This document shows positions 5,108 through 55,051 of a stretch of 64,000 nt of DNA, in pieces. Numbering within the stretch: position 1 is the first letter of the stretch; the number at the start of each line of letters is the position of its first letter. Source of the stretch: an uncultured Verrucomicrobia subdivision 3 bacterium (lineage in GTDB: Bacteria > Verrucomicrobiota > Verrucomicrobiia > Limisphaerales > UBA11358); the NCBI GenBank assembly GCA_903917705.1, contig CAIXBQ010000141.1, positions 26,861-90,860 of the forward strand, given 5' to 3'. The notes beneath the pieces are model-generated. The model was given only the letters and a program-made list of their open reading frames with translations, was not told the DNA's origin and searched no databases. The position numbers and the translations under genes were made by a program.

Positions 5108-8194
<3,087 letters not shown>

Positions 8195-15930: not shown

Positions 15931-16014
15931 ACCGCCCGGGCGATACTTTTTTAATGACACGACGACCCGCGGCGTCAAGAATACCGGTTTGAATCCGCCG
16001 CCGAATCACAACGC

Positions 16015-16728
16015 ATGACCGTCACCCTTTTCATCCCGTGCTTCGTGGACGCGCTGTATCCGCGCGCGGGCATCAGCATGGTGGAAATCCTCGAACGCCT
16101 GGGCCACACCGTGATCTGCCCGGAGGCAATCGCCTGCTGCGGCCAGCCGCCCTTCAATTCCGGCTACTGGGACGAGGCCCGCACCATCGCCCGGCCGGTG
16201 CTGGAATCATTGAAGGCGGCGGAAGCGGTGGTCATCGGCTCCGGCTCCTGCGGCGCGATGGTGAAGAAGTTTTACCCCGAGCTGTTCGCCAACACGGATC
16301 ACGCCGAACTGGCGAAGCAGGTGTCGGCCCGGACGTGGGAGTTCTCGGATTTCCTGGTCAACAAGCTCGGAGCGACCGACCTCGGGGCGACGTTTCCGCA
16401 CAAGGTCACGTTCCACGACGGCTGCCACGGCCTGCGCGAGCTCGGCATCCAGAAACAACCGCGCGCGCTGCTGGCCAGCGTCCGCGGCCTGGAACTGGTC
16501 GAGATGGGCGAGGTGTCGTGCTGCGGCTTCGGGGGGACGTTCGCCGCGAAGTTTCCGATGATCTCCACCGCGATGGGCGAGGTGAAATGCGCGGCCGCGG
16601 CCGAGACGAACGCGGAATACATCGTCTCCAGCGATTCGAGCTGCCTGATGCACATCCAAGGACTGCTGTCGCGCCAGGGCAAGCCGACCAAAACCATCAG
16701 CCTGGCCGAGGTGCTGAACCACAAATAA
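16015..16728 (+). CDS. lutA: L-lactate dehydrogenase complex, Fe-S oxidoreductase subunit LutA/LldE (CCG domains)
   Basis: MTVTLFIPCFVDALYP...CCGQPPFNSGY...CCGFGGTF. Typical LutA/YkgE protein. Confidence 0.9.
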   Translation: MTVTLFIPCFVDALYPRAGISMVEILERLGHTVICPEAIACCGQPPFNSGYWDEARTIARPVLESLKAAEAVVIGSGSCGAMVKKFYPELFANTDHAELAKQVSARTWEFSDFLVNKLGATDLGATFPHKVTFHDGCHGLRELGIQKQPRALLASVRGLELVEMGEVSCCGFGGTFAAKFPMISTAMGEVKCAAAAETNAEYIVSSDSSCLMHIQGLLSRQGKPTKTISLAEVLNHK

Positions 16729-16775
16729 TTTTTGCCACAGATGGACACAGATGGAACACAGAAGGGCATCAGCGC

Positions 16776-19024: not shown

Positions 19025-20773
19025 TCAGTAGGCAAGGTTCTTGTGGTCCTTGCCGTGGCAACTCAAGGTGCAATTGCCATGGTTCATGCCGGTGGAGGAA
19101 TAGTTGATCACGCCATGGAGGGGCTGGACATAGGCAGTGTTAAAATTGATCAAGTGAGGCTGGGTGGCGGCGTGGGAATCATGGCAGGTTGTGCAGGCGG
19201 CCTTATAGTCTTCGATATGCGTCCGATGATTCGGCCAGCTCGTGGCAAGGGAACTGTCCACCACGGAACTGCTGTGGCATTTATAGCACAGAGCGAAATT
19301 CGCGGGATTGTAGGGGCTGCCATCAGTCAGGAGCAACATCCGCTCAAGCAACGGCGCAAAGGCCGACCCGTGCGGGCCATTCGCACCGGCACCGCCGGTG
19401 GCCGACCCCTGATCATTGTTATGACAATCGCCGCAGCCGACCAGGCTGGAAGTCGTCAAGGGCGGGATGAGGCTGGGCACGCCGGCATTTTTGCCGACGC
19501 TTTCCAGCGGATGGAACGAGGTGCTGCCGGGATTAAATTCCAGGCGGGTGTTGGTCTGCACAAACTGGCGCGGGACAAGGGCGGGGCCGCGACCGGCACT
19601 GTCGCCGTGGCAGCGAAAGCATAATTCATATTCGTGAATAACGGCGGGGAGCCGGCCACCACCCGCGCTGACGCCGGCGACGCCGGCCAAGGCGCCGGCG
19701 ACCTGAGTTTTCGCACCGGGAGCGCCACTGGAGGCATGCGGATTATGGCAATCCACGCATGTCACGTGACGAACCGGCGGGTTCACCAAATCCTCGCGCG
19801 CATTATGCGCGTCCGGCTCCATCGAAACAGGATGGGCGCTAAGCTTCTTCAAATCCACCGAAACATTCTTCCCAGGACCATCACCGGCATGACAGTCAAT
19901 ACAGTTTTTTTCCGGGGTGGAAAACCGCATCAACTCGAGTTTGGCGCCGGCGGCATGGGGCACATGGCAACTGGCGCAGGCGGTGTGCGCCACCGAGGCG
20001 GATACGGAAGCCTTGATAAGGTTGCCGTTTTTTGCCGGCCCAACTTGAACCGCGAGAGCCACCGGCAGCAGTTTACTGGAAACCGCATGGGCAGAGCCCG
20101 ACCAGTCGGGCAAGGTGTGACAAGTCAAGCAGAGCGCCGAACCAGTATTATCCCTGACCAGAAAACTTCCGTATTGATTGTTATGCGGGTCATGGCAGGT
20201 GGTGCATTGGAGCTGGCCGTTGCGATCCAAGGCGACTTCAGGCGGGAGGGTTCCGGGATCAACCAAATCGCCGGCGGCGGTGGCAAGGGGCGCATCATAA
20301 GTGAAGGAAACCGGATGATCCGAAGAAAGGTCAGTGCCCAAATTGTCCAGGCCGGCCGGCATGGCGGCGGTGTTCATGGAAATGCCACCCGCGCGGCTCC
20401 CAACCAGCCCCAGGGCAACCGTGCCATCGTGGCAGCTCAAGCAAAGGCGGGACGAACCGTTCGGCTGGCCGATGGTCACGTTCAAAGCCGTCAGCGTAGC
20501 GCTGCTATAGGGCGTGTAAGCCGCCGCGGACATCTGGTGATTCCAAAGCGGGCCGTCGGTGGCAGAGGCCCCGTGCGGCGCATGGCAAAACACACACACG
20601 TCCGACTCCGTGGTCGCGTGAACCGGGCCGGGACTGCTGACCGAAAGATTGTGGCGTGAATAAATGATGCTATTGGGATTGTCGGCAAAGGCGGCAAGAG
20701 CCAGGAAGACCAGACCGACCACCACCGCGGAAAGACGCTGGCGGCCCGAAACAAATTGCGGCGCGCGATTCAT
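19025..20773 (-). CDS. Secreted dodecahaem c-type cytochrome (11 CXXCH plus 1 CX3CH), built from three tetrahaem modules
   Basis: Signal peptide LVFLALAAFA/DN. Motifs CVFCH, CLSCH, CTTCH, CLTCH, CASCH, CIDCH, CVDCH, CFRCH, CGDCH, CYKCH, CTTCH and CTLSCH. The start overlaps the stop of the upstream NHL gene (20770..20773). Confidence 0.85.
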   Translation of the reverse strand: MNRAPQFVSGRQRLSAVVVGLVFLALAAFADNPNSIIYSRHNLSVSSPGPVHATTESDVCVFCHAPHGASATDGPLWNHQMSAAAYTPYSSATLTALNVTIGQPNGSSRLCLSCHDGTVALGLVGSRAGGISMNTAAMPAGLDNLGTDLSSDHPVSFTYDAPLATAAGDLVDPGTLPPEVALDRNGQLQCTTCHDPHNNQYGSFLVRDNTGSALCLTCHTLPDWSGSAHAVSSKLLPVALAVQVGPAKNGNLIKASVSASVAHTACASCHVPHAAGAKLELMRFSTPEKNCIDCHAGDGPGKNVSVDLKKLSAHPVSMEPDAHNAREDLVNPPVRHVTCVDCHNPHASSGAPGAKTQVAGALAGVAGVSAGGGRLPAVIHEYELCFRCHGDSAGRGPALVPRQFVQTNTRLEFNPGSTSFHPLESVGKNAGVPSLIPPLTTSSLVGCGDCHNNDQGSATGGAGANGPHGSAFAPLLERMLLLTDGSPYNPANFALCYKCHSSSVVDSSLATSWPNHRTHIEDYKAACTTCHDSHAATQPHLINFNTAYVQPLHGVINYSSTGMNHGNCTLSCHGKDHKNLAY

Positions 20774-21834
20774 GGTTTGCTGAGATAGCGAAACATCTGG
20801 AGCCGATGATTGTAGGCATCAGCCACGAAAATTTCATTTTTGGAATTGATTACGATGGCATTGGGGAGGCAGAACTGGCCGGCGGCGGATCCCGCCCCGC
20901 CCCAGTCCAGCAACAACTGGCCAGCCTCGTCAAAAATCTGCACATTATTAAAAACACCGTCCACGACATAAACGTGCCCGTCGCGGTCCACGGCCACGCC
21001 CTTGGGCCGGCTGAAACACCCCGGTCCGTCGCCCGCGCTGCCGAAGGCGCGCAGGAAGCGACCATCCGGGTCAAAGACCTGAATGCGGCAATTCAAAGAA
21101 TCCGTGACATAGATGCGGCGATGGCCGTCCACGCTGACGTGCGTGGGGAAATTGAATTCGCCCGGCCCAAGCCCCCGGCGGCCAAACCGGGAAATGAATT
21201 CGCCTTGCAGCCCGCAGACAACAATCTGGTGGCGCTGCGAGTCCGCGATCAGCAAATGGTCGCCGGCCAGCGCCAGACCGGCGGGCCGCTCGAGACCGTT
21301 GGTGATGGCAAACCGAATTTTCCCCTGCTCGTCAAAGGCCAGCACCTTGCCCAAGCCGGAGTCAGCGACAAAAAATGTCGGCCCGCGCCGGACGGCGGAC
21401 ACCGGCGACAAGAAGGGGGTGCCGCCAACCGATGACCAGCGCAGCCATTTTTTACGGGCGAAGTCCAGATAACAAACCGTGGCGGAACCGGTGTCGGCGA
21501 CCAGAAGATTGCCCGCCTCGTCCAGGGAAAGTCCGAAAGGCCGATTCAATTTCTGCCGGCCATTGTTGACCCCGGTGATCCAGTTGGCGAACCGGAGCAA
21601 CGCCGCCGGGCGGACCCCGATATCCGGCGGCCCGGAAATATCCCGCACATAAACCACGCGCGGTTCGGCGGGCGGCGGCGGCCAGGCGGGGGCCGGTTTA
21701 GACCCGGCGAGCGCAGACAGCGGGAAGAGCAGACCGAGCCACGCCGCAAAAACAAAAATGCTCCGGAACCGCAAACCACCGGGGCACGGTGGCGACGGCG
21801 ACGCGGAGGGAGATGATTTCAGCAAACGTGACAT
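20770..21834 (-). CDS. Secreted NHL-repeat six-bladed beta-propeller protein
   Basis: Repeated NHL units (G.F..P.G(V/I)AVD..G..YV(A/V)D..N.R(I/L)Q(V/M)F). N-terminal hydrophobic signal FVFAAWLGLLFPLSALAG. Confidence 0.8.
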   Translation of the reverse strand: MSRLLKSSPSASPSPPCPGGLRFRSIFVFAAWLGLLFPLSALAGSKPAPAWPPPPAEPRVVYVRDISGPPDIGVRPAALLRFANWITGVNNGRQKLNRPFGLSLDEAGNLLVADTGSATVCYLDFARKKWLRWSSVGGTPFLSPVSAVRRGPTFFVADSGLGKVLAFDEQGKIRFAITNGLERPAGLALAGDHLLIADSQRHQIVVCGLQGEFISRFGRRGLGPGEFNFPTHVSVDGHRRIYVTDSLNCRIQVFDPDGRFLRAFGSAGDGPGCFSRPKGVAVDRDGHVYVVDGVFNNVQIFDEAGQLLLDWGGAGSAAGQFCLPNAIVINSKNEIFVADAYNHRLQMFRYLSKP

Positions 21835-21835
21835 A

Positions 21836-23857
21836 TCAGAAAGATCGCCTCAGATAGGTGAAGAATCGATGTTTAATGCGTTCTTCCGACCAACCGCCGG
21901 CCGCGGTTGACTGGGAGTTAAATTCATAGCCGGCGCGCAGGCTCAATTTGCCGCGCGTCCAGCCCAGACCGGTACGCGCCATGCCCTGAACCAGCTGGTT
22001 GCCAGCCACCTGCTGCACCAGGCCGCCGCCCTCGACATACCACTTGATGGACATCGGCAGCAAGGTATTGTAGCGGGCCATGAACTGGTATTGCGACTGG
22101 TCCGGACTGCCGGGGTAAGTGTAAAACGATTGGCTGAAATCCAAACTCAACGAGGACACGCCGGTCAGGTCGAACTCAAAATTCTGGAATAAACGCAGCG
22201 ACTGATACCGGGTAAAATTGGAATCGTAGCTTTCAAGTTCCGCGCCGGTGCGGAACCACTTGCGATGATAATCCACACCGCCGACCAGATCGGTGAGCGT
22301 CTGGGTGAGCACCACCGGCGGCGCATTGTTATCGAGCCAGTTCACCCGACCGTAAACACCGAATCGATTGAACAAATCCAGCCGGAACTGGCCATTAGCA
22401 CTGAAGGTGTCGTAGGAGCTGCTCCCCACCGGATCGCTCTGGTAGGTAACCGTGACCGAAAGATTGTCATTCGTTTGCAACAGGCCCTGAAGATGACTGC
22501 CGGGCGGAACCACCAGTTTGATTTCCGTCAATTCACCGGAATGAACGATCGTGTAGTCCGCCGGATTGGCGAGCGTATCAGCTCCGGCGCTGACGACAAT
22601 GGTGGAATCAACGACCCGGGGACGGTTTAAATAGACCGGGTGGTAGCCGAGGCTGGTGGACAGATAAAGCTGATGCGGCTCCGCGAACGTCGTAAGCATG
22701 GCGCCGGAGGAATCCTGATCCTGATGGTCGACCACGAGTCCGGTTCCCACCGCCAGCCGGCCCCACGATTGCAAGCGCTTGGTATAATTTTCAGACAGCC
22801 CGAGCCCATATTGATCAAAAGTGGAACCGCCCCCGGCCGCAGTGTCCTCCTGATGCGTGCCATGGCCTTCGAGACTGGACGTGAGACTTTCGTAAAGCTG
22901 ATGACGGACACCGGCGGTGCCCTGCACCCGCGAAGAAACAATGGGATTCAACTCACTGCGGTTGAAATTCATCATCAGGTAGCTGTCCAGATTGGGCCGG
23001 TGGTTGACGAGCAGGTTTTCACTCGCGTTCAAGGTGTCAATCTGCTGCCCGGAATAATCGGACTGGCTGTAACTCAAGCCGGTGCCGGCATTGATCTGCT
23101 TCCGATGGCCGAACGTTTCTGAATCGGAAAGGCCCGCCGACCAGTTGCTGGTATCCAGGCGGCTGCCATAATTCAAAACATTTTCCAACTCGCTGGCATG
23201 CAAACTCAAAGTCGTCTGGCCGGATTTCCGCTGATGGATGCCAAGGAAATTAAAATATGTTTCGGTGATCTGCGAGGAATCCGTCAGGCCGGAAGCCGTC
23301 TCGTCGCGATACCCCAAATCCGCGTTCAGGCTGAACTCGCCCGCATTGCAATTAATGCGTCCGCCGTAACGATTCGCGTCCACCGTGTAGGTATTGAAGG
23401 TGCCGTAGTCGCGGAAGGTGTGGTCTTGCGCGGCGAAGACGGAGACATTGTAAGGCTTGGCCGAAAGCAGATTGAACTGGGCCAGATAACGGAGCAATTC
23501 CGCGCTCTCATTGCGGGTCTGCCCAGAGCCCGGACCACCGGACGTCATGTTGTCCCAGCCCCACCCCAAGTCGCCGCTCAAATCAAACGCCAGGAGGTTG
23601 GGATGATAAATCGAACCGGTGGTATGGAGTCCCACCAACGGCGTAACGGAAGTATGATCGTAGGTGCTGCTGCCACCGCTGACCCGCGTCTGTTCCGTGG
23701 AACCTTCCGCCTCGACGCCCACGCTCACCTCGGGCAGGCCGTTCAACTTGAACCACTCGGGGTCTTCCGCCCGAACCGCGGGGGCAATACCCGCCGCAAA
23801 ACCGAGGACGGACAGGCCGGCGAACCAGCGATAGCGATGGAAACACCCCAAATTCAT
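21836..23857 (-). CDS. Large outer-membrane beta-barrel protein (porin-like, family unknown)
   Basis: 673 aa. Signal peptide ...GIAPAVRA/EDP. Long runs of alternating polar/hydrophobic Y/G/S/T/N-rich strands. C-terminal ...FFTYLRRSF ends in an aromatic residue, as in BAM substrates. Its start overlaps the stop of the 15-haem gene. Confidence 0.7.
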   Translation of the reverse strand: MNLGCFHRYRWFAGLSVLGFAAGIAPAVRAEDPEWFKLNGLPEVSVGVEAEGSTEQTRVSGGSSTYDHTSVTPLVGLHTTGSIYHPNLLAFDLSGDLGWGWDNMTSGGPGSGQTRNESAELLRYLAQFNLLSAKPYNVSVFAAQDHTFRDYGTFNTYTVDANRYGGRINCNAGEFSLNADLGYRDETASGLTDSSQITETYFNFLGIHQRKSGQTTLSLHASELENVLNYGSRLDTSNWSAGLSDSETFGHRKQINAGTGLSYSQSDYSGQQIDTLNASENLLVNHRPNLDSYLMMNFNRSELNPIVSSRVQGTAGVRHQLYESLTSSLEGHGTHQEDTAAGGGSTFDQYGLGLSENYTKRLQSWGRLAVGTGLVVDHQDQDSSGAMLTTFAEPHQLYLSTSLGYHPVYLNRPRVVDSTIVVSAGADTLANPADYTIVHSGELTEIKLVVPPGSHLQGLLQTNDNLSVTVTYQSDPVGSSSYDTFSANGQFRLDLFNRFGVYGRVNWLDNNAPPVVLTQTLTDLVGGVDYHRKWFRTGAELESYDSNFTRYQSLRLFQNFEFDLTGVSSLSLDFSQSFYTYPGSPDQSQYQFMARYNTLLPMSIKWYVEGGGLVQQVAGNQLVQGMARTGLGWTRGKLSLRAGYEFNSQSTAAGGWSEERIKHRFFTYLRRSF

Positions 23858-25209
23858 CTGGCCGGCGGCGGCGCCTGGCCGCCCGTTTTATTCACCGCAC
23901 CGGCCTTGAGCAAATACTTGTCACCGCCGACATGCGGATCATGACACGCCGTGCAAGATTTTCCCGCGGCGCCGGCATGACCCTTGACCGCCTGCAAATC
24001 CTTATCGTCATGGCAGTCGCCGCAGAGCTTCAAAATGTTTTTGGCGAGCAAATGGGACTCCGCCGACTGGTGCGGCTTGTGGCAGCCGGTGCAGTCCTCG
24101 ACCACATCGTGCTTGAACCTGGCCTTCTCCAAAAAATTGTCGTGGCATTCCCAGCACAGGGCCGGCGGGGATTTCTTCACCATGGCCTTTTTGTCGGTCG
24201 CATGGGGGTTGTGGCAGGCCGTGCAATCGCCGTCGGCCACGGGCTGATGGACGACCTTGGCGGTCTTGGACGGAAGGTCGTCGTGGCAACCCGCACACGT
24301 CTCCTTGACCGGCTTTTTCAGCAGGCCTTTGATGTTTCCCGCGTGGGGATTGTGACACTCCAGACAATCACCGTCGCCGACCGGCTGATGCACAACTTTT
24401 TTGGTCCCAATAAGGTCGTCATGACAGCCCAAGCAGGTCTCCTTGACAGGTTTTTTGAGGAGCTTCTTGATTTTGCCGGCATGCGGCGTGTGACATTCCA
24501 GGCAGTCCCCATCGCCCACGGGCTGGTGAACCTTTTTTTTGTTTCCGATCAGGTCATCATGACATTCAAGACAGGTGTCCTTGACAGATTTTTTCAGCAG
24601 ACTTTTGAAATTGGTGGAGTGAGGCGCGTGGCAGTCGGTGCATTCGCCCGCCTCAACCGCCTGATGCCTGACCTTACCGGCGGCGAGCGGGTCATCGTGG
24701 CAAGTCAGGCAGAGCGCCGGGACGGGTTTCTGCAGAAGTTTTTTGTTCGGCGAATGGTGCGGATTGTGACAACTCTTGCAATCGCCCTCATCCACGGGCT
24801 GATGCTTGATCTTGCCGGCCAGAAAATTCGTATGCAGCACCGTGTGGCAGACGAAGCAGGCCTCGCCCGGCTTGCCCCGCATGGCATTGGAAAATTGGGA
24901 TTCGTGGCAGGCGGTGCAATTCCGCGCCGCGAACGGCGGGTGCATGACCTCTTTTGGCATCGGCGGCCGAGCCACCACCGGCGCCGGAGCATTGGTTGCC
25001 TGCGGGGCGCGCGGATCCCCGGCGACAACGACCGGGGCGTTGGTGACGCCGCCCAGCGGCGGAACGCCGTCAAAGAAAACCGACAGCCACGCATGCCGCT
25101 TCTCCGTGCTGCAACCGAACAGCAGCGACAGGGCGCAAAGCACAAGGCAGCCCCCCCCCGCCCGGCGCCAAGCCCGGCGGTAAATAGATTTTGAAAGTGG
25201 CAAACTCAT
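23854..25209 (-). CDS. Lipoprotein pentadecahaem c-type cytochrome with tandem 46-aa dihaem modules
   Basis: Lipobox LLFGC. 15 CXXCH motifs. Repeated unit VHQPVGDGDC.ECH.PHAG.IK.LLKKPVKETC.GCHDDL. Confidence 0.85.
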   Translation of the reverse strand: MSLPLSKSIYRRAWRRAGGGCLVLCALSLLFGCSTEKRHAWLSVFFDGVPPLGGVTNAPVVVAGDPRAPQATNAPAPVVARPPMPKEVMHPPFAARNCTACHESQFSNAMRGKPGEACFVCHTVLHTNFLAGKIKHQPVDEGDCKSCHNPHHSPNKKLLQKPVPALCLTCHDDPLAAGKVRHQAVEAGECTDCHAPHSTNFKSLLKKSVKDTCLECHDDLIGNKKKVHQPVGDGDCLECHTPHAGKIKKLLKKPVKETCLGCHDDLIGTKKVVHQPVGDGDCLECHNPHAGNIKGLLKKPVKETCAGCHDDLPSKTAKVVHQPVADGDCTACHNPHATDKKAMVKKSPPALCWECHDNFLEKARFKHDVVEDCTGCHKPHQSAESHLLAKNILKLCGDCHDDKDLQAVKGHAGAAGKSCTACHDPHVGGDKYLLKAGAVNKTGGQAPPPAR

Positions 25210-25233: not shown

Positions 25234-26325
25234 TCAAGGTGTGGCCGGCTTTTTTAGAAACCCATAAACGCTGACCTTGTTCGGGCCGAACTGGCTGGTA
25301 ACCAGAATCAAGTAGTCACACTGGCAACCCGGCGCGAGGTATTTCTGAAAATACCCAAGGTGGTCGTAATCCACCTTGATGGACGCCGGCAGCGTCAGTT
25401 GACCGCGCGTGCTGGTGCCCGGCTGGCCGAAATACATAAGCAGCCGGCCCTCCGCATCAAAGATCTGCACCACCTGCGTGGCGGCATCCACCACATAAGC
25501 CCGGCCCTGATGATCCACCGCCACGCCTTTGGGGCGGGCAAAGCTTCCCGGCGCCAAGCCCTGCCGCCCGAGCGTTCGCAGATATTTTCCGTCTAGGTCA
25601 TAGACCTGGACCACAAACCCGCCGACATCGGACACCAGCAACCGGCCGTTCTGGTCCAGCGCCAGGTTGGCGGGGGAATAAAGGGTTCCCGCGTTGGTCG
25701 CGGCGCTATTGGCGGCCGGGATGGTGAACAAGAGTTGCTGATCCGCCTTGCTATAAACCCGGACGACATGATTGAGCATGTCGCCCACATAAATCCGGTT
25801 GGTCGAAACCGCCACGTCCGCCGGCTTCATCTCGTCTTTTTTCCCGATGGCACTTAAAAAATTGCCGTCGTTGTCATAGATCACCACCTGATTCCGGCCG
25901 GTATCGGCCACATACCGCGTGCCGTCGGCATCAATGGTGAGATTAATCGGCGTCCGGAGTTTCCCCTCGCCCGGCGGAGCGAAGTAAGCCGCCCGGTGTT
26001 TGTTCAGGTCAAACACCTGGATCATGCTGCCCACGGTGTCGCAAACATAGATTTTGCCGCCATGCAACGCCAAACCGTAAGGCTTGACGAGACTGCCCAC
26101 CGGCTGTTGCCCGGTGATAAAATCGCCAAAAGTCCTGGTGCGCCCCAGCTCAGCATCAGAGGAGAACGAAGTCAGAAATTGAATCCGCGGCTCATCCGGA
26201 GACGGCGGGAAAAAAGTGTAACTCGTCCTGGCGGCGGGCTTGGTGGCGGCGCAGCCAGCCAGCAACCACAGCAAAAGGCAGCTGCCGGACATCCAAACAA
26301 GCCCGCGTTTAATCATGAAGATCAT
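25234..26325 (-). CDS. NHL-repeat beta-propeller lipoprotein
   Basis: Start taken at MIFMIKRGLVWMSGSCLLLWLLAGC (lipobox LLAGC). NHL units such as GRNQVVIYDNDG, LNHVVRVYS and ATQVVQIFDAEG. Confidence 0.8.
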   Translation of the reverse strand: MIFMIKRGLVWMSGSCLLLWLLAGCAATKPAARTSYTFFPPSPDEPRIQFLTSFSSDAELGRTRTFGDFITGQQPVGSLVKPYGLALHGGKIYVCDTVGSMIQVFDLNKHRAAYFAPPGEGKLRTPINLTIDADGTRYVADTGRNQVVIYDNDGNFLSAIGKKDEMKPADVAVSTNRIYVGDMLNHVVRVYSKADQQLLFTIPAANSAATNAGTLYSPANLALDQNGRLLVSDVGGFVVQVYDLDGKYLRTLGRQGLAPGSFARPKGVAVDHQGRAYVVDAATQVVQIFDAEGRLLMYFGQPGTSTRGQLTLPASIKVDYDHLGYFQKYLAPGCQCDYLILVTSQFGPNKVSVYGFLKKPATP

Positions 26326-26616
26326 GGGTAAATTCGTATTATAAATCAGCTCGAAGGCCGCGTTCGGCGCTCCAAGAATGGCCAACAAAGTTACACGCCC
26401 AAGCCAGAAAAACCAAGCGTCTTTTCCCGCCGAGTTATCAAGCCTGGCCCGGTTTTCCGCACATTCAGGTGCCGGCAATCAAACCGGCGCAAAAAATAGT
26501 CCGTTAAAACCGCCCCGAGACCCGGTCCCGTTTGCCAGGCCCGATAAAAAGCGGGCTTTGGTCAACCGATTTGACCAAAGCCCGCGCGATTCCAATCAAG
26601 CAACGAGACCTAACGA

Positions 26617-29004
26617 TTACTGAACCAAGATAAACTTGGTGCGGGTCAACGGCGAACCGTCAACCGTGCAGGTCACCGAGTAAAGACCCGGAGTGTTGTA
26701 GATATATGTCGGGTTGGCGCCAGTGGTGGATCCGCCATCCCCGAAAGTCCAATTATACACACCGCCGCTGCCGTAGCTATTGCTGAACGACACCGACAAC
26801 GGAGCGGAACCCGAGACCACGCTGGCCGAGAACGCGGCCGGATAGTTGCTGGTGACAAACTGGTTCATCACCCGGCTTTCCGCATCCGCGAGCAGCGATT
26901 TCACATAGGTCGGATTATGGACACCATAGCTCTGGTCTTCATAAATCCAATAGAGGCTAAAACGCGCCGTGCGAATGTCCTGCGGAACCGTTGACAACTG
27001 GAGGTTGTCATTGGTGCCGGACGGGACAAGGCCGAACGCGGGATTGTAGGCCTTGGGCGGGCCGACGCTGAACACCTTGCCGGCACCATTGGTAGATTTA
27101 GCGCCGAAATAAGCGAGCGGGCTGGGGTACTCCCAGGCGCACGTCCCGTAATTCGTCCGGAGGATAGCCGGAGCCACGGTGCTGCCCCATTGCTTCAACA
27201 GGGAGACCACGCGGTCCATGCTATTGGACACGGCGGCCTTGGAGTTGAAGGTCTTGGCCACCAACTGCGGCGCGGTCAAAGCGGAATGGCACGAGGCCAG
27301 ACAGCCGGCGTTATCCGAAACGAACGAGTGACCGGTGACATTGGTGCCGGCATTGACCGCGTAGCCCGGCACATGGCAGTCGGCACACTGGTTGGGTGCC
27401 AGGGTGTGAGGATCCGTGAGCACGTTTGCGGGACCGCCGCGCGCAGCCAGGTCATCATTCAACTGGCCGATGACCACGTTGTACTGCACGGGATAGTGCG
27501 GCGCATAATCGCCGGCGCTATTGCTGCTGTAATAAACCGTGCCACCATTGGTGTAGGCAATGAGCGGATAATAGATCCCCACGCCAACCACCGGATTGGT
27601 TGAGGTCGAAACAACATAGGATTGGTAGGTCACAGGATTACCCTGGATATTGGTGAACACCTGGCCGTATATGTTGGTATAAACCACGCTGTTCGTGGTA
27701 TACGCACTCACCAGATTGGTCGTTGTGATGGCCACCAGGTTGGTCACATAACCATAGGTCGAACCATCCCAGCGCGGACCGGCTCCGCCGATACCGCCGC
27801 CGCCACTATGGCACTGGCCACAGACCTGAACCTTGGGATTATAATACTGATCAAACACATTGTTCAGGGTGAGAGTATTAGTGGTAAACGTCCCGTTGTA
27901 ATTTGTGATGACCGCCGTGGTTGTCAGCAAAAGCGGCACCACATGGCTATAGTTGGTGGAGAAGGTAGGATAACGCAACTGGGCGACATAATTGGACGAA
28001 TGCGGGTCATGGCAGGTCGCACAGGCGGCCGCCCCGACCGAACCCATAGCCCCCGCGAATGAACCGGGGAACAAGGTCAGCGGATGCGGGCTGCCCGCCT
28101 TGTTGTCATAATATTCCTTGACCATGACCATGCGCTGGTCGGCCAAATGGCAAACCTGACAAGCTCCACTGTGGCTACCGACGCTATGGCCCACGCTGCC
28201 TTTGATAATGCCCATGGGCAGATTGGTAACACTGCTGGCAATAATATTGGTGTACTCCTGGAAGGTGGGATGCAGACTGCCCTGATGGCAACTGCCGCAG
28301 ATGTTCGGATCCAAGCTGACCACCGGAAGGATCAGGGCGTGGTCGCTGTTCTTGTGCCAGCCAGCCGGGCCGTGGCAGTTTTCGCAGCCTACGTTCTCCA
28401 GGTTGGGGGTGGTCGCGGGATCCACAAAACCGGTCTGCTGGCCATAGCCAACGGTCAGGCACGCCAGCGAGAACCGGTTGGAAACAGCCGGATTGCTATA
28501 AACCCCCGAATGCGTGGTCTTTTTATATGGGGTGTATTTGTTACCGTGACAACCGGCACACTGGTCAGAGCCGGCATAGCTGTTGGCCTGGGCCAACCGG
28601 AAGCTATAACTGTTGGTCGGATCGGGCTTGGGTGCGGTGAAGGTCCCGGCAAAACTCGACGAGATCACGGTGCCAAGGGTGAGCCAAGGTCCTGTGACGA
28701 TATTCGTGGTAGCCTGGATGCTATACCACCCGTTCACGCCAAACCATTTCAAGGTGAAATTGGTCGGGGTGTTGGTCGGGGTAAATGTGACCGTGGGGTT
28801 CTGATAGGCCGCAGCGCACACGCCGCCACCGGAGTTAAACGGGGCCAGGGTGCCCGCCACGTAATTGGAGGCCAGCCCGTATTGATTCGTCTGCGGCGGC
28901 AGCGACAGCGACTGTGCCGTGGCCGCAAACACACCGCCCAGCAGCAAACCCGTCGCCAAGACGGATTGTGCGCGGCGCATGAGATTATGGTTCATTAGTT
29001 TCAT
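26617..29004 (-). CDS. Secreted multihaem c-type cytochrome (7 CXXCH plus 1 CX3CH) with a C-terminal PKD domain
   Basis: Start at MKLMNHNLMRRAQSVLATGLLLGGVFAATAQS. Motifs CAGCH, CENCHGP, CGSCH, CQVCH, CATCHDPH, CGQCH, CADCH and CLASCH. C-terminal PKD signature YNWTFGDGGSTTGANPTYIYNTPGLYSVTCTV. Confidence 0.8.
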   Translation of the reverse strand: MKLMNHNLMRRAQSVLATGLLLGGVFAATAQSLSLPPQTNQYGLASNYVAGTLAPFNSGGGVCAAAYQNPTVTFTPTNTPTNFTLKWFGVNGWYSIQATTNIVTGPWLTLGTVISSSFAGTFTAPKPDPTNSYSFRLAQANSYAGSDQCAGCHGNKYTPYKKTTHSGVYSNPAVSNRFSLACLTVGYGQQTGFVDPATTPNLENVGCENCHGPAGWHKNSDHALILPVVSLDPNICGSCHQGSLHPTFQEYTNIIASSVTNLPMGIIKGSVGHSVGSHSGACQVCHLADQRMVMVKEYYDNKAGSPHPLTLFPGSFAGAMGSVGAAACATCHDPHSSNYVAQLRYPTFSTNYSHVVPLLLTTTAVITNYNGTFTTNTLTLNNVFDQYYNPKVQVCGQCHSGGGGIGGAGPRWDGSTYGYVTNLVAITTTNLVSAYTTNSVVYTNIYGQVFTNIQGNPVTYQSYVVSTSTNPVVGVGIYYPLIAYTNGGTVYYSSNSAGDYAPHYPVQYNVVIGQLNDDLAARGGPANVLTDPHTLAPNQCADCHVPGYAVNAGTNVTGHSFVSDNAGCLASCHSALTAPQLVAKTFNSKAAVSNSMDRVVSLLKQWGSTVAPAILRTNYGTCAWEYPSPLAYFGAKSTNGAGKVFSVGPPKAYNPAFGLVPSGTNDNLQLSTVPQDIRTARFSLYWIYEDQSYGVHNPTYVKSLLADAESRVMNQFVTSNYPAAFSASVVSGSAPLSVSFSNSYGSGGVYNWTFGDGGSTTGANPTYIYNTPGLYSVTCTVDGSPLTRTKFILVQ

Positions 29005-29121
29005 ATTATTTTTTGTTGGTTCATGCGCCGTCACGAGGACCGCCCGGCCAGCCGCCGCCCCAACGGGCGGTCGACAGGCACGGGCAATCGATTCATAAGC
29101 GGGCACAGCGGACGTAGCTGA

Positions 29122-29853
29122 TTACTTGTTATGGCAACTGCGGCAGAGCAAGCTGCCGACGCCACCGGCGGTGCCGTTAATTTTGACGAGGTGCGGATTG
29201 TTAACAATGTTATACGGCGAACCTTCCTGGTTGTGCACGTCGTGGCAGGAATTGCACTCCAGATTGCCCTGCTGATTGAGCAAGAAACCCCTGATGCTCA
29301 TGTCGTTGCCGGGCGTGAAACCGGGCGAATTGGCGTCCGGGGCCAACACGGGGTTCGCGGAGTCATAGATCCACTTGTCCTGGCCCGGGCCCGTTCCAAC
29401 GATGGACTGGTAGTTGAAGGAGATCGGATGCGAGTGGGTCAGATTTTTGCTGTTTTCGGAGATGGCGGCACCGTTGGTGATATATTCCGAACTCGCGACA
29501 CTGCCATAGGCATTGACCGCGATGGAGCCGTCATGGCAGCTCAAGCACGCCAGGGAACTGCCGGTCGGAGCCGACGCCGGAGTATATTTGATGTTGGCTC
29601 CCGGAGAAGCGCCATTGGCATACATCTGCCATCCCGAGGCGGAAATTGCCGTATGACCCCAGAGCGGGCCGGTGTTGGGATCGGCATGGTGGGGCGTGTG
29701 ACACACAGCACAGACCGTGGCCGGATTGGCCGGGTCGTTATTCCACGCACGGGAGTGGAAATCATGCGGACTGCCAAGGATGCCCGCCCGGGCGGTCAAG
29801 GTCAGCAGGGAGCCTGCGACCACGGTCAGAGTGAGGAGGTGTGTGTTTTTCAT
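29122..29853 (-). CDS. Small secreted tetrahaem c-type cytochrome
   Basis: 243 aa. Signal peptide LTLTARAG. Motifs CAVCHTPHH, CLSCHDG, CNSCHDVH and CRSCHNK. Collinear with the first module of the dodecahaem protein. Confidence 0.85.
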   Translation of the reverse strand: MKNTHLLTLTVVAGSLLTLTARAGILGSPHDFHSRAWNNDPANPATVCAVCHTPHHADPNTGPLWGHTAISASGWQMYANGASPGANIKYTPASAPTGSSLACLSCHDGSIAVNAYGSVASSEYITNGAAISENSKNLTHSHPISFNYQSIVGTGPGQDKWIYDSANPVLAPDANSPGFTPGNDMSIRGFLLNQQGNLECNSCHDVHNQEGSPYNIVNNPHLVKINGTAGGVGSLLCRSCHNK

Positions 29854-30062: not shown

Positions 30063-31148
30063 TCAAGCACGACAAACCGAGGCCCCATCAATCGTCCAGC
30101 CGGGCGCGGTCTCAACCGCGACCGGGGCACGCCGGGCATAGGGCGAATTAAATCGCTCCATCAATTCCATCACGTGTTCGGCAATGATCTGCCGGCACAC
30201 CGCGAGCTCCTGCTCGCGATTTTTGGTGTTTTCGCGAACGACGGCTTCCAGATCATCGATATCATAAAGGTAGACGTCCGGAAGTTCCGCCACCGCCGGG
30301 TCGATGTCGCGCGGCACCGCGATGTCCACCAGCACCAGCGGCCGGTGCCGGCGCGCGGGCAAAATCTTCGCCACATCCTCGCGTTTCAAGACAAGGTCGG
30401 GGCTGCCGGTCGAGCTGACGAGAATGTCCGCCTCGGTCATCGCCGCCGCCGAATCCTCGATCCGCACGGCGCGGCCGCCAAATTCCGCCGCCAGCCTCTC
30501 CGCGCGCTCGAACGAGCGGTTGGAAACGAGGACGGTTTTGGCTCCGCGCTTGGCCAGATGTTTCACGCAAGCCTCACCCATCTTGCCCGCGCCCAAAATC
30601 ATCACGGTCTTCTTGCTCAAATCCCGGTCGAACACTTTTTCCGCAAGTTCCACCGCCACACTGCCCACCGAGGTCGCACCGCGGCCGATGCCGGTGTTCG
30701 TGCGGACGGCCTTCACCACCGACAAGGCGGTCTGGAACAGCCGGTTCATCTTCTTACCCACGAGGCCGGCGTCCTTCGCCGCCTGATACGCGGTCTTGAC
30801 CTGGCCGGTGATCTCCGTTTCGCCGATCACCAGCGAGTCCAAACCGCTGGCCACCGCAAAGAGATGTTCCGCCGCCGCGGCGCCTTCCTTGACGTAGAGA
30901 TGCGGGGTGAAATCGAAATCGCTGCCGGTAAGCTCCTGAAACAGCCGCTGAACGCGGCCCTGAATCCACGGGGCCACGCCATAGATCTCGACGCGGTTGC
31001 AGGTGGAGAGCAGGACGACCTCGGCGAGATTGCCGCGCAGCTTGAGGCGGCAGCCGCAGCATTGCAAGCGCGAGCGGTGGACCGCGAGTTTCTCGCGCAC
31101 CTCCACCGGCGTGGTCTTGTAGCTCAAGCCTGCAACAAAGATATTCAT
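30063..31148 (-). CDS. hemA: Glutamyl-tRNA reductase
   Basis: MNIFVAGLSYKTTPVEVREKLA...LSTCNRVEIY...ILGAGKMGE. Canonical HemA. Confidence 0.9.
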   Translation of the reverse strand: MNIFVAGLSYKTTPVEVREKLAVHRSRLQCCGCRLKLRGNLAEVVLLSTCNRVEIYGVAPWIQGRVQRLFQELTGSDFDFTPHLYVKEGAAAAEHLFAVASGLDSLVIGETEITGQVKTAYQAAKDAGLVGKKMNRLFQTALSVVKAVRTNTGIGRGATSVGSVAVELAEKVFDRDLSKKTVMILGAGKMGEACVKHLAKRGAKTVLVSNRSFERAERLAAEFGGRAVRIEDSAAAMTEADILVSSTGSPDLVLKREDVAKILPARRHRPLVLVDIAVPRDIDPAVAELPDVYLYDIDDLEAVVRENTKNREQELAVCRQIIAEHVMELMERFNSPYARRAPVAVETAPGWTIDGASVCRA

Positions 31149-31279: not shown

Positions 31280-33004
31280 TTAGATTTCCTTACCGCTCTC
31301 GAGGGTGCCCGGCGGGTCAGCGCGGAGCTGTTCCGCCGCGGGTTCCAGCGGATGTTCATGCAACTGAAACTCCTCGGAAATGCGCCCGTCCAGGCAGGCG
31401 GTATTAAGCGGGTAAACCTCCGGATCAAAGATGACGTGATAGAAATGCCAGACGATGATGGCCAGGCAGGCCAAAACCGCCTCGTAATAGTGGATGGTCG
31501 TCGCCACGGTCACCACCCACCGCGGCAGCCATTGCGTCACGTCAATCTTCAGCCAGATGGCCAAGCCGGTCGCGCCCATGATGATCGTGCCCCAGACCAC
31601 CGCCCAGTACTCCATCTTCTCGGCATAACCGAAACGGCCGATTTTTGGTTTCGATTTCGTGAAGCCACCCAGGTAACAAACGGCGTGCCACACGTCAGCC
31701 GCATCTTTTTTTACCGGGAACAGGTCGGCCACCAGTTTCCGTCCGTCACGGGTGGCGAGGAGATAAATCACGTGATACAAGCCGACCCCGAGCAGGATGA
31801 TGCCGGCGATGCGGTGCGTCCAGCGGCGGAACGGCTCGCTCGAACACATCACTTTCGCCAGCCAGGAATCGGGGAATTTCAGGGCGAAGCCCGTGATGGC
31901 CAGCACGATGAAGCTGGAGGCCAGCAGAAAATGCTGCCAGCGCTGCGACGCCGTCATCCGCACCACGGGTCGCTCCGTCATGCGCAGCCGCGCGGCCGTC
32001 TTCTTGAGGAACAAAATTCCGTTGTGGGCCAGCATGCCGCCGATGGTGCCGAAAATGAGAAGCATATAGATGTTCCGCACCCAGCGGTTCAACCGGCTGC
32101 CAAAATCAACCCCGCCCGCCTGTCCGTCCGGCGCGACGTGGATTTTGCCCAAGGAGAACTCGGTGTTCGCGCCCGGATGACATTTGCCGCACGTGGTCAC
32201 CAAGTTTGCCTTGCTGATGGTCGAGTTGGTGTCCGACGACGGCAGAATCTTATGGTAGCTGTGGCAACTGGCGCAATTCGCCGCGACGGTGGAACCATAT
32301 TGCGCTGCGAGGCCGTGGTAACTTTCAAAAAAGGTTTTCACCCGGTCCGCCGGCAGATTGTATTTGGTGTTCAACCGCTCGGACGAATGGCAGCGGCTGC
32401 ACACATCCTCGGAAATGGTCATGGTTGAACTCGTCTTGAGCGAACGGATTTTATGGTCGTCATGGCAGCCCGTGCAGGTCGGCGCGTCCTGCGAGCCGGC
32501 GGCCACCGCCTTGCCGTGGACGCTCGCCTGCCATTCGCGCGCCTCCTTGTCATGGCACGCGCCGCAGGTTTCCGCCTGACGCGCAAAATAGATCGGCGAG
32601 GTGGGCGAACGATCGCTAATGATCTCATGGGTATCATGGCAGTCGCGGCACGTGGCCGCGTCATCATGGCCGGATTTCAAGGCCAGGCCGTGAACGCTCG
32701 AATTGTAGCTTTCCGTCTGCCGCGCGTGGCACAAGCCGCAATTGACCGGGGCCAACGGCTTGCCGTCGTCGGGATGCTTGGTCGTGAGGTCCGCATGGCA
32801 ACTGATGCAGGAGTTGGTCTTGTGGGCGGACAATTTCAATTTGGCCGCATCCACGAACAATGAAATGGCCTTGCCGGCGGAATTGGTCTTGAACAGCGTG
32901 TTATCGCCATGGCAGTCAAGGCAGTCGCTATTTTTCAAGCCGGCCAGGGCCGGCAGCGCCGCGAGCATGAACAAGGTGAACAAAATGGGGAGACAGCGTT
33001 TCAT
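31280..33004 (-). CDS. Inner-membrane nonahaem c-type cytochrome fused to an FdnI/HydC-like dihaem cytochrome b (CbcL-like quinol oxidoreductase)
   Basis: Signal peptide plus 9 CXXCH motifs (CLDCH, CISCH, CGLCH, CRDCH, CGACH, CTGCH, CSRCH, CASCH, CGKCH). These are followed by about 5 TM helices carrying conserved His residues (RWQHFLLASSF, THRIAGIILLGVGLYHVIY, TTIHYYEAV...VWHFYHVIF). Confidence 0.8.
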   Translation of the reverse strand: MKRCLPILFTLFMLAALPALAGLKNSDCLDCHGDNTLFKTNSAGKAISLFVDAAKLKLSAHKTNSCISCHADLTTKHPDDGKPLAPVNCGLCHARQTESYNSSVHGLALKSGHDDAATCRDCHDTHEIISDRSPTSPIYFARQAETCGACHDKEAREWQASVHGKAVAAGSQDAPTCTGCHDDHKIRSLKTSSTMTISEDVCSRCHSSERLNTKYNLPADRVKTFFESYHGLAAQYGSTVAANCASCHSYHKILPSSDTNSTISKANLVTTCGKCHPGANTEFSLGKIHVAPDGQAGGVDFGSRLNRWVRNIYMLLIFGTIGGMLAHNGILFLKKTAARLRMTERPVVRMTASQRWQHFLLASSFIVLAITGFALKFPDSWLAKVMCSSEPFRRWTHRIAGIILLGVGLYHVIYLLATRDGRKLVADLFPVKKDAADVWHAVCYLGGFTKSKPKIGRFGYAEKMEYWAVVWGTIIMGATGLAIWLKIDVTQWLPRWVVTVATTIHYYEAVLACLAIIVWHFYHVIFDPEVYPLNTACLDGRISEEFQLHEHPLEPAAEQLRADPPGTLESGKEI

Positions 33005-33107
33005 GCCCCATCTTCCGGCGAAACCGCGGGCAAAGACTCACCTTTTATTGCCAACTATTCGCCAAATATTGATGCGATGTAAAACAATTCTTGTCCAATT
33101 CCCCTCG

Positions 33108-42545: not shown

Positions 42546-43504
42546 GAGTCCGTCTGAAAAATCATGAATGATGAGGAATCAAGCGAGTCGGCGGAGTTGA
42601 ATTCGGATCATCGCGATATAGATCCACGCCACGGCGCTGGACTCGGTGGTTTCGTAATCGCGCACGAGTCGCCGCTGATGCATCAACCAGCCGAAAGTTC
42701 GCTCGACCACCCAGCGGCGCGCCAATACTTTGAAGCCCTTGGCCGTGTCGGAGCGTTTAATGACCTCAACGGCGAGTTTGGGGTGGAGTCCTTTGACCCA
42801 ATGGGCAAAGGCATCGCCGGTATAACCCCCATCCACCCAGAGGATGCGCAGCCAGGTGAACCAGCCCAGGACACGGCCCAAAAGCAATTGGGCACCGGCG
42901 CGTTCGGTGGTGTTGGCTGGAGTCACGGCCACGCCGAGCACCAGCCCCAACGTATCCACCAGCAGATGCCGCTTGCGGCCTTTGATCCGTTTGCCAGCGT
43001 CATAACCCACGGGGCCGCCGTGCCCCGCCGATTTCACACTTTGACTGTCCAGAATCGCGGCCGTGGGCCGGCTGCGCTTGTCATAAGTTCGGCGCACGAG
43101 CGTGCGCAGCGCGTCGTTGAGGGCCGCCCACTGGTGGTTGAGCGTCCATTGCCGGAAGATATGATAGACGGTTTTCCACGGGGGAAAGTCGGTGGGTAGA
43201 TACCGCCACGGGCAGCCACATTTGACGACATAGAGGATGGCATCCAGGATACGCCGCCGGTCGGTGGGCGGGCGTCCACGTTTGGCGGGTTTGGGGAGCA
43301 GCGGTGGGAGGTAAGCCCATTGGGCGTCGGTGAGGCTGGTTTCGTATATGGCGTTTTTCACGCCCCAACTGAAGCTGCGCTTAAAATGAGCCGCCCCAAC
43401 CCAGGCCAGATGTCAACCCATTCCTCATTTTTCTTTCACTCGTCTTCCAGCAGACCACCCGAATCTCAACGTTTTTCCCAAAAACCGATTATTCAGACGG
43501 ACTC
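42546..43504 (-). mobile_element. Intact IS5-family insertion sequence (959 bp) with a 3-bp TTA target duplication
   Basis: Inverted repeats GAGTCCGTCTGAA(A/T)AATC at both ends. TTA at 42543..42545 and 43505..43507. Confidence 0.8.
42579..43361 (-). CDS. IS5-family DDE transposase
   Basis: LTDAQWAYLPPLLP...GRPPTDRRRILDAILYVVKCGCPWRYLP...DSQSVK...VDGGYTG...RWVVERTFGWL. Confidence 0.9.
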   Translation of the reverse strand: MKNAIYETSLTDAQWAYLPPLLPKPAKRGRPPTDRRRILDAILYVVKCGCPWRYLPTDFPPWKTVYHIFRQWTLNHQWAALNDALRTLVRRTYDKRSRPTAAILDSQSVKSAGHGGPVGYDAGKRIKGRKRHLLVDTLGLVLGVAVTPANTTERAGAQLLLGRVLGWFTWLRILWVDGGYTGDAFAHWVKGLHPKLAVEVIKRSDTAKGFKVLARRWVVERTFGWLMHQRRLVRDYETTESSAVAWIYIAMIRIQLRRLA

Positions 43505-44723: not shown

Positions 44724-44828
44724 CAGGAATTGCATAAACTAGCAAGGGATGAATTCTTACCTTGCCCGAAGCAATTGCTTCTTCAGGAATTGCATAACGA
44801 TTTACAGGAAGTGCTCTATCCTTTATTC
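44724..44828. promoter_or_regulatory. Divergent control region with CAGGAA half-sites and a conserved element of about 45 bp
   Basis: CAGGAATTGCATAA at 44724 and 44784. CAGGAA at 44805, 21 bp from 44784. The stretch 44783..44828 is about 90 percent identical to 58226..58270. Confidence 0.5.
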
Positions 44829-45021
44829 CTGCCTTGGCAGTAAAATCCCGCGACAGATAAACCAAAACCCGTCTTATGAAATGAAAATCAAGCGGATAAG
44901 CATACTCTTCCTGGTCGACGACATGGCGTCCGGCCTGTTTCAACTCGCCGCCGCTGCGCTCGGAACCACGGCAAGCCCCGCTGAGAAGCATTCCATAAGT
45001 GGAACAACAGGAAGCGCAGAA

Positions 45022-47979: not shown

Positions 47980-47989
47980 AGGCTCCATT

Positions 47990-50137: not shown

Positions 50138-50254
50138 GGAAACTCCAGGTCAGCCTGTGAATGAAAACCATTGTTATTTTACAGTCGCCGCATTCTTGGC
50201 AGAGAGCTGCTGAATGCTTTGGTAATAGCAGCCTATAACTGAAAGAATTCTGTC

Positions 50255-51382: not shown

Positions 51383-51451
51383 TTTCGTGTGGAAGAGGAC
51401 AACGGCGAGACGAAGTTTGAAGGTTTTTAGCAAGCAGAAAGAAATACTCAA

Positions 51452-53458: not shown

Positions 53459-53512
53459 CATCGGCATTTAATGACATTTTTCTTAACCATTAAAATAACC
53501 GAAAAAACATTC

Positions 53513-55006: not shown

Positions 55007-55051
55007 GACTGGCTAACGTTCCCAGAAATGGCCCGACCAGCAAACTTGAAT

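Follow-up and report, generated by a model that had tools for sequence, protein, structure and literature searches.

CbcL, the product of GSU0274 in Geobacter sulfurreducens, is required for acceptors below about −100 mV (−100 to −210 mV), has a haem domain with a midpoint of −194 mV and reduces PpcA (PMC13591261), and its nine haems are all bis-His coordinated (PMC9129911). Homologues of CbcL, MtrH and MtoC have been found in 15 phyla, four of these homologues being verrucomicrobial proteins such as Oter_2603 of Opitutus terrae with 11 haems, and many of the genes of this family adjoin cytochrome genes (Zhong & Shi 2018, PMC6295460). Clusters of porin and multihaem cytochrome genes have been described in verrucomicrobial metagenome-assembled genomes (MAGs) and in Opitutus, with the inner-membrane step left unspecified (He et al. 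2017, PMC5615132), and in 2026 a verrucomicrobium in culture was reported to respire Fe(III) (PMC13608581). Here we describe a gene at positions 31280 to 33004, minus strand, of a 64,000-nucleotide stretch of contig CAIXBQ010000141.1 (the window), which comes from an uncultured Verrucomicrobia subdivision 3 bacterium. We consider it probable that the encoded protein is an inner-membrane quinol:cytochrome c oxidoreductase of the CbcL/MtrH/MtoC family that feeds the neighbouring porin-cytochrome module. The gene and the parts of its product lie as follows.

31280..33004, minus strand: CbcL-family gene, 574 residues, with signal peptide, nine-haem c domain, linker helix, four-helix dihaem cytochrome b and predicted cytoplasmic tail (open reading frame (ORF) and translation, Pfam, NCBIfam, BLASTP, hhalign)
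32942..33004, minus strand: predicted signal peptide, residues 1-21 (MKR, hydrophobic core, ALA/G), read by eye from the sequence
32105..32941, minus strand: predicted periplasmic haem-c domain, residues 22-300, with nine CXXCH motifs, ten further His and a single Met
32003..32065, minus strand: linker helix TM0, residues 314-334 (301-339 in the AlphaFold2 model), predicted to run from periplasm to cytoplasm and carrying H327 (hydropathy, AlphaFold2)
31421..31960, minus strand: FdnI/HydC-type cytochrome b domain, residues 349-528, four transmembrane helices (PF01292, FdnI alignment, Foldseek)

The gene is a single ORF that runs on the minus strand from an ATG at 33004 to 31280 and encodes 574 residues. 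Its N terminus, MKR-CLPILFTLFMLAALPALA followed by Gly, reads as the n-, h- and c-regions and AXA site of a Sec signal peptide (a reading of the sequence made with no predictor). A database protein that is 100% identical (P0001) is annotated from M13 and has 562 residues, 12 fewer; we preferred the 574-residue start because it gives the better signal peptide and because its length equals that of most close homologues (574 residues). The mature N-terminal part carries nine CXXCH motifs, which begin at residues 28, 66, 89, 119, 147, 177, 202, 244 and 272 and together span residues 28-276, where a rough estimate from residue frequencies gives a chance expectation of about 0.002 CXXCH per 290 residues. 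No CX3-4CH variants were present in the 574-residue translation. The non-motif His of this domain are at 61, 77, 105, 113, 126, 163, 184, 230, 251 and 289, and ten extra His with only one Met is a pattern that would fit the all-bis-His coordination shown for CbcL (PMC9129911). The translation thus shows a nine-c-haem N-terminal domain that the Sec signal peptide is predicted to export. Among solved multihaem cytochromes, the best match was chain A of PDB entry 28pb ('Cytochrome c', 278 residues), which matches residues 27-182 with E 1.7e-9.

The C-terminal half of the protein resembles the cytochrome b subunit of formate dehydrogenase. Hydropathy gave five hydrophobic segments after the haem domain (residues 314-334, 357-379, 397-420, 467-488 and 500-529), and an AlphaFold2 model gave helices at 301-339, 352-376, 390-417, 460-484 and 495-525; this model was of moderate quality (mean predicted local distance difference test score (pLDDT) 64.7, predicted template-modelling score 0.40), and only its helix boundaries and top fold match were used. 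Pfam PF01292 (Ni_hydr_CYTB) matched residues 349-528 with 54.3 bits against a gathering threshold of 30.1 (E 1.9e-14). FdnI, the cytochrome b556 gamma subunit of Escherichia coli formate dehydrogenase-N (1kqf_C), was the best PDB sequence match for this half and aligned to residues 345-552 (E 9e-7). It was also the top PDB match of the model in Foldseek (probability 1.00, target-normalised TM-score 0.66), followed by 4gd3_A, the cytochrome b of hydrogenase-1. Counting residues in the alignment, H358, H397, H505 and H520 fall on H18, H57, H155 and H169 of FdnI, which we take from the 1KQF structure to be the ligands of its two b haems. These four His are conserved at 95-98% in a MAFFT alignment of 128 family sequences, made up of representatives of at least 520 residues from the 150 best matches and ten full-length genes from a genome scan. 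The alignments therefore show a four-helix bundle that should be able to bind two b haems, with H358/H520 as the predicted cytoplasmic-side pair and H397/H505 as the predicted periplasmic-side pair.

The distribution of Lys and Arg defined the likely topology. There are six in the 22 residues after the linker helix and nine between bundle helices 2 and 3, compared with three and one in the other two loops, for totals of 15 in the cytoplasmic and 4 in the periplasmic loops. By the positive-inside rule, this bias places the haem-c domain in the periplasm, and not in the cytoplasm, with both ends of the FdnI-like bundle cytoplasmic as they are in FdnI. The first-pass annotation of this DNA had proposed a signal peptide with nine CXXCH motifs in the N-terminal half, about five transmembrane helices, a c-haem domain facing the periplasm and an FdnI/HydC-type C-terminal half. 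Each of these proposals agrees with our results, since both N-terminal features are in the 574-residue translation, the hydrophobic segments and modelled helices agree in number, the charge bias favors a periplasmic haem-c domain, and homology to dihaem cytochromes b was detected by the PF01292 score, the 1kqf_C alignment and the fold match. The motifs it quoted, RWQHF (H358), THRIAG (H397), LYHVIY (H411), IHYYEAV (H505) and WHFYHVIF (H520, H523), were all found.

FdnI and the protein studied here share the four-helix bundle and His at equivalent positions. FdnI is a stand-alone protein of 217 residues that takes electrons from FdnGH and reduces menaquinone, whereas in the protein described here an additional helix joins the b domain to a periplasmic domain with nine haems, and the b domain most likely works in the quinol-oxidizing direction. 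A conventional gamma (cytochrome b) anchor of a formate dehydrogenase or a [NiFe] hydrogenase is the reading implied by the Joint Genome Institute, which labels many homologues 'formate dehydrogenase gamma subunit', and both TIGR01583 and PF01292 do match the C-terminal half. We nonetheless regard such an anchor as very improbable. The equivalog scores fell well short of their cutoffs (TIGR01583, 57.9 versus 115.85 bits; NF007558, 36.7 versus 339; TIGR02125, 19.7 versus 121.5; the FdnI/FdoI equivalogs as a set, 30-37 versus 339-341), genes for molybdopterin, Fe-S or hydrogenase subunits were absent within about 12 kilobases (kb) on each side, and the fused nine-haem domain stands in for such partners.

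Two additional His lie within the predicted membrane helices, H327 in the linker helix (about 32024-32026) and H411 in bundle helix 2 (about 31772-31774). Both are invariant in a 39-sequence alignment. Across the 128 family sequences each is about 81% conserved, with both present in 84 sequences and only one of them in 21 and 20 others, and sequences without H327 mostly have Tyr, Trp or Phe at that position. We considered H327 and H411 as ligands of a third b haem and rejected the idea, as the two His vary independently across these relatives; it is possible that they line the quinol site.

We compared the protein with CbcL by way of orthologues from Geomonas propionica and a Geobacter MAG, used in place of GSU0274 itself. 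Fragments of GSU0274 taken from a published supplement (PMC9129911) matched only four truncated Desulfuromonadia b-domain fragments, and a scan of genomes seeded with the Desulfuromonadia b-domain fragment P0401 gave 80 loci, G. sulfurreducens not being among them. Published data describe GSU0274 as a protein of 619 residues with CXXCH at 34, 57, 82, 105, 129, 158, 186, 229 and 257 and six transmembrane helices, the last at 589-611 (PMC6295460 Table S2). Three loci from the scan have CXXCH positions identical to this fingerprint: L006 (Geomonas propionica, 616 residues), L008 (the Geobacter MAG, 615 residues) and L003. A Geomonas propionica sequence is also among those that Antunes et al. 2022 aligned in their supplement, where, according to their main text, the proteins have >65% identity to CbcL (PMC9129911). 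Another representative, P0201, has the haem spacing nearest to that of GSU0274 and was set aside as belonging to a Marinimicrobia/Ignavibacteria group.

Over residues 28-570, BLASTP gave 29% identity to the Geomonas propionica orthologue (E 2e-64) and 30% to the Geobacter one (E 2e-65), with all nine CXXCH motifs paired one-to-one and the four b-haem His aligned. Nine of the ten extra His also align with invariant His of the CbcL orthologues, as read manually from the BLASTP alignment and the list of invariant residues. Comparison of family profiles by hhalign, with the target family on one side and eight CbcL orthologues on the other, gave a probability of 100% and E 2.1e-77 over 516 columns. 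The resemblance extends along the whole protein and includes the signal peptide, nine collinear CXXCH motifs, about ten extra His, a near absence of Met, a linker helix with a conserved His, and a four-ligand FdnI/HydC b-domain. The differences are of several kinds. The protein has 574 residues and the CbcL orthologues 615-619; its first motif spacings are 38, 23, 30 and 28 compared with 23, 25, 23 and 24 in CbcL, only the last four spacings being alike; a distal His has shifted, so that H113 is present and the invariant H182 of the CbcL orthologues is absent; the loop between TM2 and TM3 is shorter; and the sixth, C-terminal transmembrane helix of CbcL has no counterpart, leaving a C terminus that is expected to be cytoplasmic. 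Identities within the Geobacter/Desulfuromonas/Syntrophus CbcL group are 58-100% (PMC6295460).

We conclude that, as judged by alignment, the protein belongs to the CbcL/MtrH/MtoC family in the broad sense but is not orthologous to CbcL, because of its 29-30% identity, its lack of a sixth transmembrane helix and its different N-terminal haem spacing. The first-pass annotation had likened it to CbcL and to the use of CbcL with low-potential acceptors. The alignment that this called for, which we ran on the CbcL orthologues, upheld the shared architecture through the full-length BLASTP and hhalign matches and the nine collinear motifs, whereas the low-potential role is not transferable at this level of identity. 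No PpcA-type triheme cytochrome gene was recognized in the window.

Membership in the broad family follows from an exported multihaem c domain (3-23 CXXCH in this family), a HydC/FdnI-like b domain and full-length similarity. Most members have six transmembrane helices, and the published survey accepts five or four; the protein described here has five. The family is large: a word-indexed search returned >5,800 related proteins at E ≤ 1e-5, the best 120 of which are 77-100% identical and nearly all metagenomic, and an exhaustive HMMER search of representatives at 50% identity returned 5,997 at E ≤ 0.001 and 1,008 at E ≤ 1e-30. Complete-looking members have from about 5 to 22 haem motifs, and one relative with 79% identity comes from a Verrucomicrobiales MAG. 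The MtoC and MtrH proteins (Dechloromonas Daro_1404, Gallionella Galf_2006 and Rhodoferax Rfer_4073) likewise fuse nine CXXCH motifs to a cytochrome b and are often encoded beside genes for outer-membrane conduits (PMC6295460). These proteins, which we compared by published description and not by sequence alignment, have 655-673 residues and six predicted transmembrane helices, and their genes cluster with mtrAB or mtoAB, which the present locus lacks. The spacing between motifs 1 and 2 is 38 here, 40-41 in MtoC/MtrH and 23 in CbcL.

The gene lies upstream of, and co-directional with, hemA, four multihaem cytochrome genes, two genes for NHL propellers and a porin candidate; its neighbors also include a flavin reductase gene. 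The surrounding features, from upstream to downstream, are as follows.

33054..33083, minus strand: sigma-70-like promoter match, 9 of 12 positions, in the 423-base-pair (bp) intergenic region upstream of the cbcL-like gene
30063..31148, minus strand: hemA (glutamyl-tRNA reductase), 361 residues, 131 bp downstream of the cbcL-like gene (TIGR01035, Pfam GlutR_N, Shikimate_DH)
29122..29853, minus strand: four-haem cytochrome c with signal peptide, 243 residues (counterparts of 252-256 residues in related contigs L084, L085 and L087)
26617..29106, minus strand: large multihaem cytochrome, 829 residues, seven CXXCH and one CX3CH, c554/c552-like regions, C-terminal PKD domain (Pfam, motif count)
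25234..26478, minus strand: NHL-repeat beta-propeller protein (Pfam)
23854..25209, minus strand: 15-haem cytochrome, 451 residues, lipobox-like N terminus (LLFGC) (Pfam Paired_CXXCH_1 in eight stretches, motif count)
21836..23857, minus strand: porin candidate, 673 residues, signal peptide, C terminus ...RRSF, rich in Gly, Ser, Thr, Asn and Tyr, 4-nucleotide overlap with the preceding cytochrome gene
20770..21834, minus strand: second NHL-repeat beta-propeller protein (Pfam)
19025..20773, minus strand: multihaem cytochrome, 582 residues, 12 haems (11 CXXCH and one CX4CH), candidate outer or extracellular cytochrome (584-residue counterpart in L085)

The hemA gene separates the cbcL-like gene from the cytochrome genes, and its position suggests that haem supply is co-expressed with the cytochromes. 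Its product scored 375.7 bits against TIGR01035 (cutoff 209.6) over model positions 1-335 of 416, and the C-terminal dimerization domain is missing; a hemA tied to a cytochrome operon may be regulatory or may be a second copy. The 15-haem cytochrome scored 185 bits against TIGR03508, just below the cutoff of 192.2, and its resemblance to the DmsE/MtrA and GSU2203 families makes it the candidate for insertion in the porin. The 673-residue ORF is a candidate for that porin on the grounds of its signal peptide, its C-terminal Phe and its barrel-like composition, and it may represent an unclassified porin family of the cytochrome conduit; its single-sequence AlphaFold2 model was uninformative (pLDDT 29.5). 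The last four genes of the cluster, from the 15-haem cytochrome to the 582-residue cytochrome, overlap or almost abut, and the two NHL propeller genes are interleaved with multihaem cytochrome genes. Three promoter-type sites were found upstream of the cbcL-like gene compared with 1.8 expected in shuffles, which is weak evidence, and scans for promoters and terminators performed no better than on shuffled sequence. Rfam and tRNA scans of the whole window gave no matches. The first-pass annotation had placed the gene at the head of a cytochrome/porin locus outside Desulfuromonadia. The upstream, co-directional position was borne out, with hemA intervening and the porin remaining a candidate, and the occurrence outside Desulfuromonadia is true and is not new.

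The gene order around close homologues was compared in six related contigs, listed with the identity of their cbcL-like product.

L087, 87% identity: hemA, small cytochrome, large PKD cytochrome, NHL protein, 446-residue ORF and 700-residue ORF after the cbcL-like gene
L085, 83% identity: hemA, small cytochrome, NHL protein, 387-residue ORF, 674-residue ORF, NHL protein and 584-residue cytochrome
L084, 79% identity: hemA, small cytochrome, large PKD cytochrome, then unrelated genes
L001 and L086, 79% identity: hemA and other multihaem cytochromes, with NapC/NirT-like and ResB/CcsA genes upstream
L083, 82% identity: neither hemA nor the cytochrome cluster, one monohaem cytochrome c gene upstream

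The pairing of the cbcL-like gene with hemA is kept in five of the six contigs (L001, L084, L085, L086 and L087), each hemA encoding 357-361 residues. The module of NHL protein, cytochrome and an ORF of about 674-700 residues is kept in L085 and L087, where the 674- and 700-residue ORFs occupy the same position as the 673-residue porin candidate. Linkage of the cbcL-like gene to a cytochrome cluster is therefore frequent and not obligatory. L087 also contains a second CbcL-type gene (5546-7690, plus strand; 714 residues, with multihaem c and weak Ni_hydr_CYTB matches) about 2.3 kb upstream of the 574-residue one, so some relatives have two paralogous inner-membrane modules.

This synteny bears on whether the partner of the protein is an outer-membrane conduit at all. 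Beside the cbcL-like gene, the relatives most often keep hemA and a multihaem cytochrome, and the porin candidate is kept less often; the small four-haem and large c554/PKD cytochromes occur together in L084 and L087, and a different multihaem cytochrome takes their place in L001 and L086. The protein could thus be a quinol dehydrogenase for a periplasmic or cell-surface reductase of a soluble substrate, for example nitrogen oxides or sulfur compounds, with the 829-residue PKD cytochrome as the candidate partner, given the matches of the latter to Pfam Cytochrom_C552 (E 7.5e-11) and Cytochrome_C554. We consider this unlikely. The 829-residue protein lacks a CXXCK catalytic haem motif, for which reason we also rejected its reading as a nitrite reductase, and its c552 match covers only part of the model. 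Moreover, the DmsE/MtrA-like cytochrome, the porin-like ORF and a further multihaem cytochrome directly follow in the window, L085 and L087, with overlapping or near-abutting genes. The ORF for the 829-residue cytochrome is listed from a GTG with a leader unlike a signal peptide; translation probably begins instead at an internal Met at about residue 35 (MKLMNHNLMRRAQSVLATGLLLGG...), from which the sequence reads as a proper signal peptide. Counterparts in relatives are far longer, at 1222-1252 residues with more PKD domains.

Taken as an inner-membrane quinol:cytochrome c oxidoreductase, the protein would work as follows. From the periplasmic haem-c domain, one linker helix would bring the chain back to the cytoplasm, where the four-helix FdnI-type bundle begins. 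With the quinone site of FdnI placed as in the 1KQF and 1KQG structures, a YAEKxEYW motif that is conserved in the family at the start of bundle helix 3 aligns with the quinone-site loop of FdnI. Menaquinol would accordingly be expected, from FdnI, to be oxidized near the cytoplasmic-side b haem. The two b haems would carry electrons across the membrane and the nine c haems would take them on into the periplasm. They would then pass by way of soluble or MtrA-like multihaem cytochromes to the porin-cytochrome module, and finally to extracellular acceptors, for example Fe(III) oxides or humic substances. With an FdnI-like site running in reverse, protons would be released to the cytoplasm and charge moved outward, spending membrane potential, which would suit low-potential acceptors, as with CbcL. 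Cultured Limisphaera respire ferrihydrite with menaquinone-7 as their only quinone (PMC13608581), and this physiology makes the oxidoreductase plausible in Verrucomicrobiota.

Several observations weigh against this proposal. Identity to CbcL is only about 30%. The position of the quinol site is one that we infer from FdnI. The sixth transmembrane helix of CbcL, MtoC and MtrH is missing, the protein ending 45 hydrophilic residues past its last helix by hydropathy and AlphaFold2; this absence is shared by 109 of the 128 related sequences, and we take it to be real and conserved because of the 131-bp gap to hemA and the homologues of equal length with 77-89% identity. The 673-residue ORF had no Pfam, NCBIfam or PDB match, even at E 10, so that the porin call lacks homology support. 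Among close relatives, L083 has the cbcL-like gene with neither hemA nor the cytochrome cluster, and the L084 cluster ends after the large cytochrome. Finally, the family takes in MtoC proteins from Fe(II) oxidizers, for which the reverse direction has been proposed, and the two directions are not told apart by any sequence feature (PMC6295460).

Sequence does not reveal which way electrons flow or at what potential the protein works, and the same wiring could be reversed. The protein would then be a quinone reductase that receives electrons from extracellular or periplasmic donors, for example Fe(II) or reduced humics, through the conduit and passes them to the quinone pool, as proposed for MtoC. 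The family occurs in Fe(III) reducers and Fe(II) oxidizers alike (PMC6295460), the spacing between the first two motifs is nearer to that of MtoC/MtrH than to that of CbcL, and FdnI itself is a quinone reductase. We judge reversal to be improbable, however, as the movement of electrons from high-potential Fe(II) into a menaquinone pool would be uphill, no physiology other than Fe(III) reduction has been reported for the phylum (PMC13608581), genes for carbon fixation or a terminal oxidase were not seen near the cluster, and the window encodes a heterotrophic polysaccharide degrader.

That last point rests on the rest of the window, which contains genes for glycoside hydrolases GH2, GH20, GH95 and GH106, a sulfatase, lactate-utilization proteins and a class II ribonucleotide reductase. 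This gene content is typical of a polysaccharide degrader and consistent with Verrucomicrobiota, and together with the 79% identity to a protein of a Verrucomicrobiales MAG it makes a verrucomicrobium that degrades polysaccharides the probable host. Just past the cytochrome cluster, on the opposite strand (13069-18176, plus strand), are genes for a D-lactate dehydrogenase-like protein with FAD, Fe-S and CCG regions (953 residues) and a LutB-like protein (712 residues), and these genes could serve the same respiratory chain as a source of electrons, through lactate oxidation. An IS4/IS5-family DDE transposase gene (DUF4096 and DDE_Tnp_1; 42579-43361, minus strand), which lies about 9.6 kb upstream of the cbcL-like gene, parts housekeeping genes from the glycoside hydrolase and sulfatase block (44749-58129).

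Compared with the verrucomicrobial clusters of He et al. 2017 and the Limisphaera loci (PMC5615132, PMC13608581), this locus probably shares the phylum, and it shares a polysaccharide-degrading lifestyle and a porin-like gene clustered with periplasmic and extracellular multihaem cytochromes, for which a role in extracellular electron transfer is proposed, the porins having been likened to the 673-residue ORF by description and not by sequence. The 2017 clusters have an eight-haem periplasmic cytochrome, whereas the present one has a 15-haem cytochrome, NHL propellers, hemA and a CbcL-family inner-membrane candidate. Earlier papers already cover the fusion, the range of phyla that have it and its linkage with clusters of cytochrome genes, and the identification is to that extent incremental; what is modestly new is that the five-helix form is conserved, as is the pairing with a shortened hemA, and that NHL propellers are associated with the locus. 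A further reading, which we hold to be doubtful, is that the 574-residue proteins are a distinct five-helix branch of the CbcL family with a cytoplasmic C terminus that, together with the truncated HemA, the NHL propellers, the DmsE-like 15-haem cytochrome and the unclassified beta-barrel, would form a conduit specific to a lineage of Verrucomicrobiota, with its own haem-supply gene and inner-membrane energetics or partners perhaps unlike those of Geobacter CbcL.

Iron respiration in this phylum has been shown in culture only recently, and the family is very abundant in metagenomes, with about 6,000 clusters at 50% identity (E ≤ 0.001) and many hundreds of near-identical environmental copies of the branch described here. 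Given such abundance, whether these proteins oxidize or reduce quinones would change how much extracellular respiration is attributed to polysaccharide degraders in soils, sediments and humic waters.

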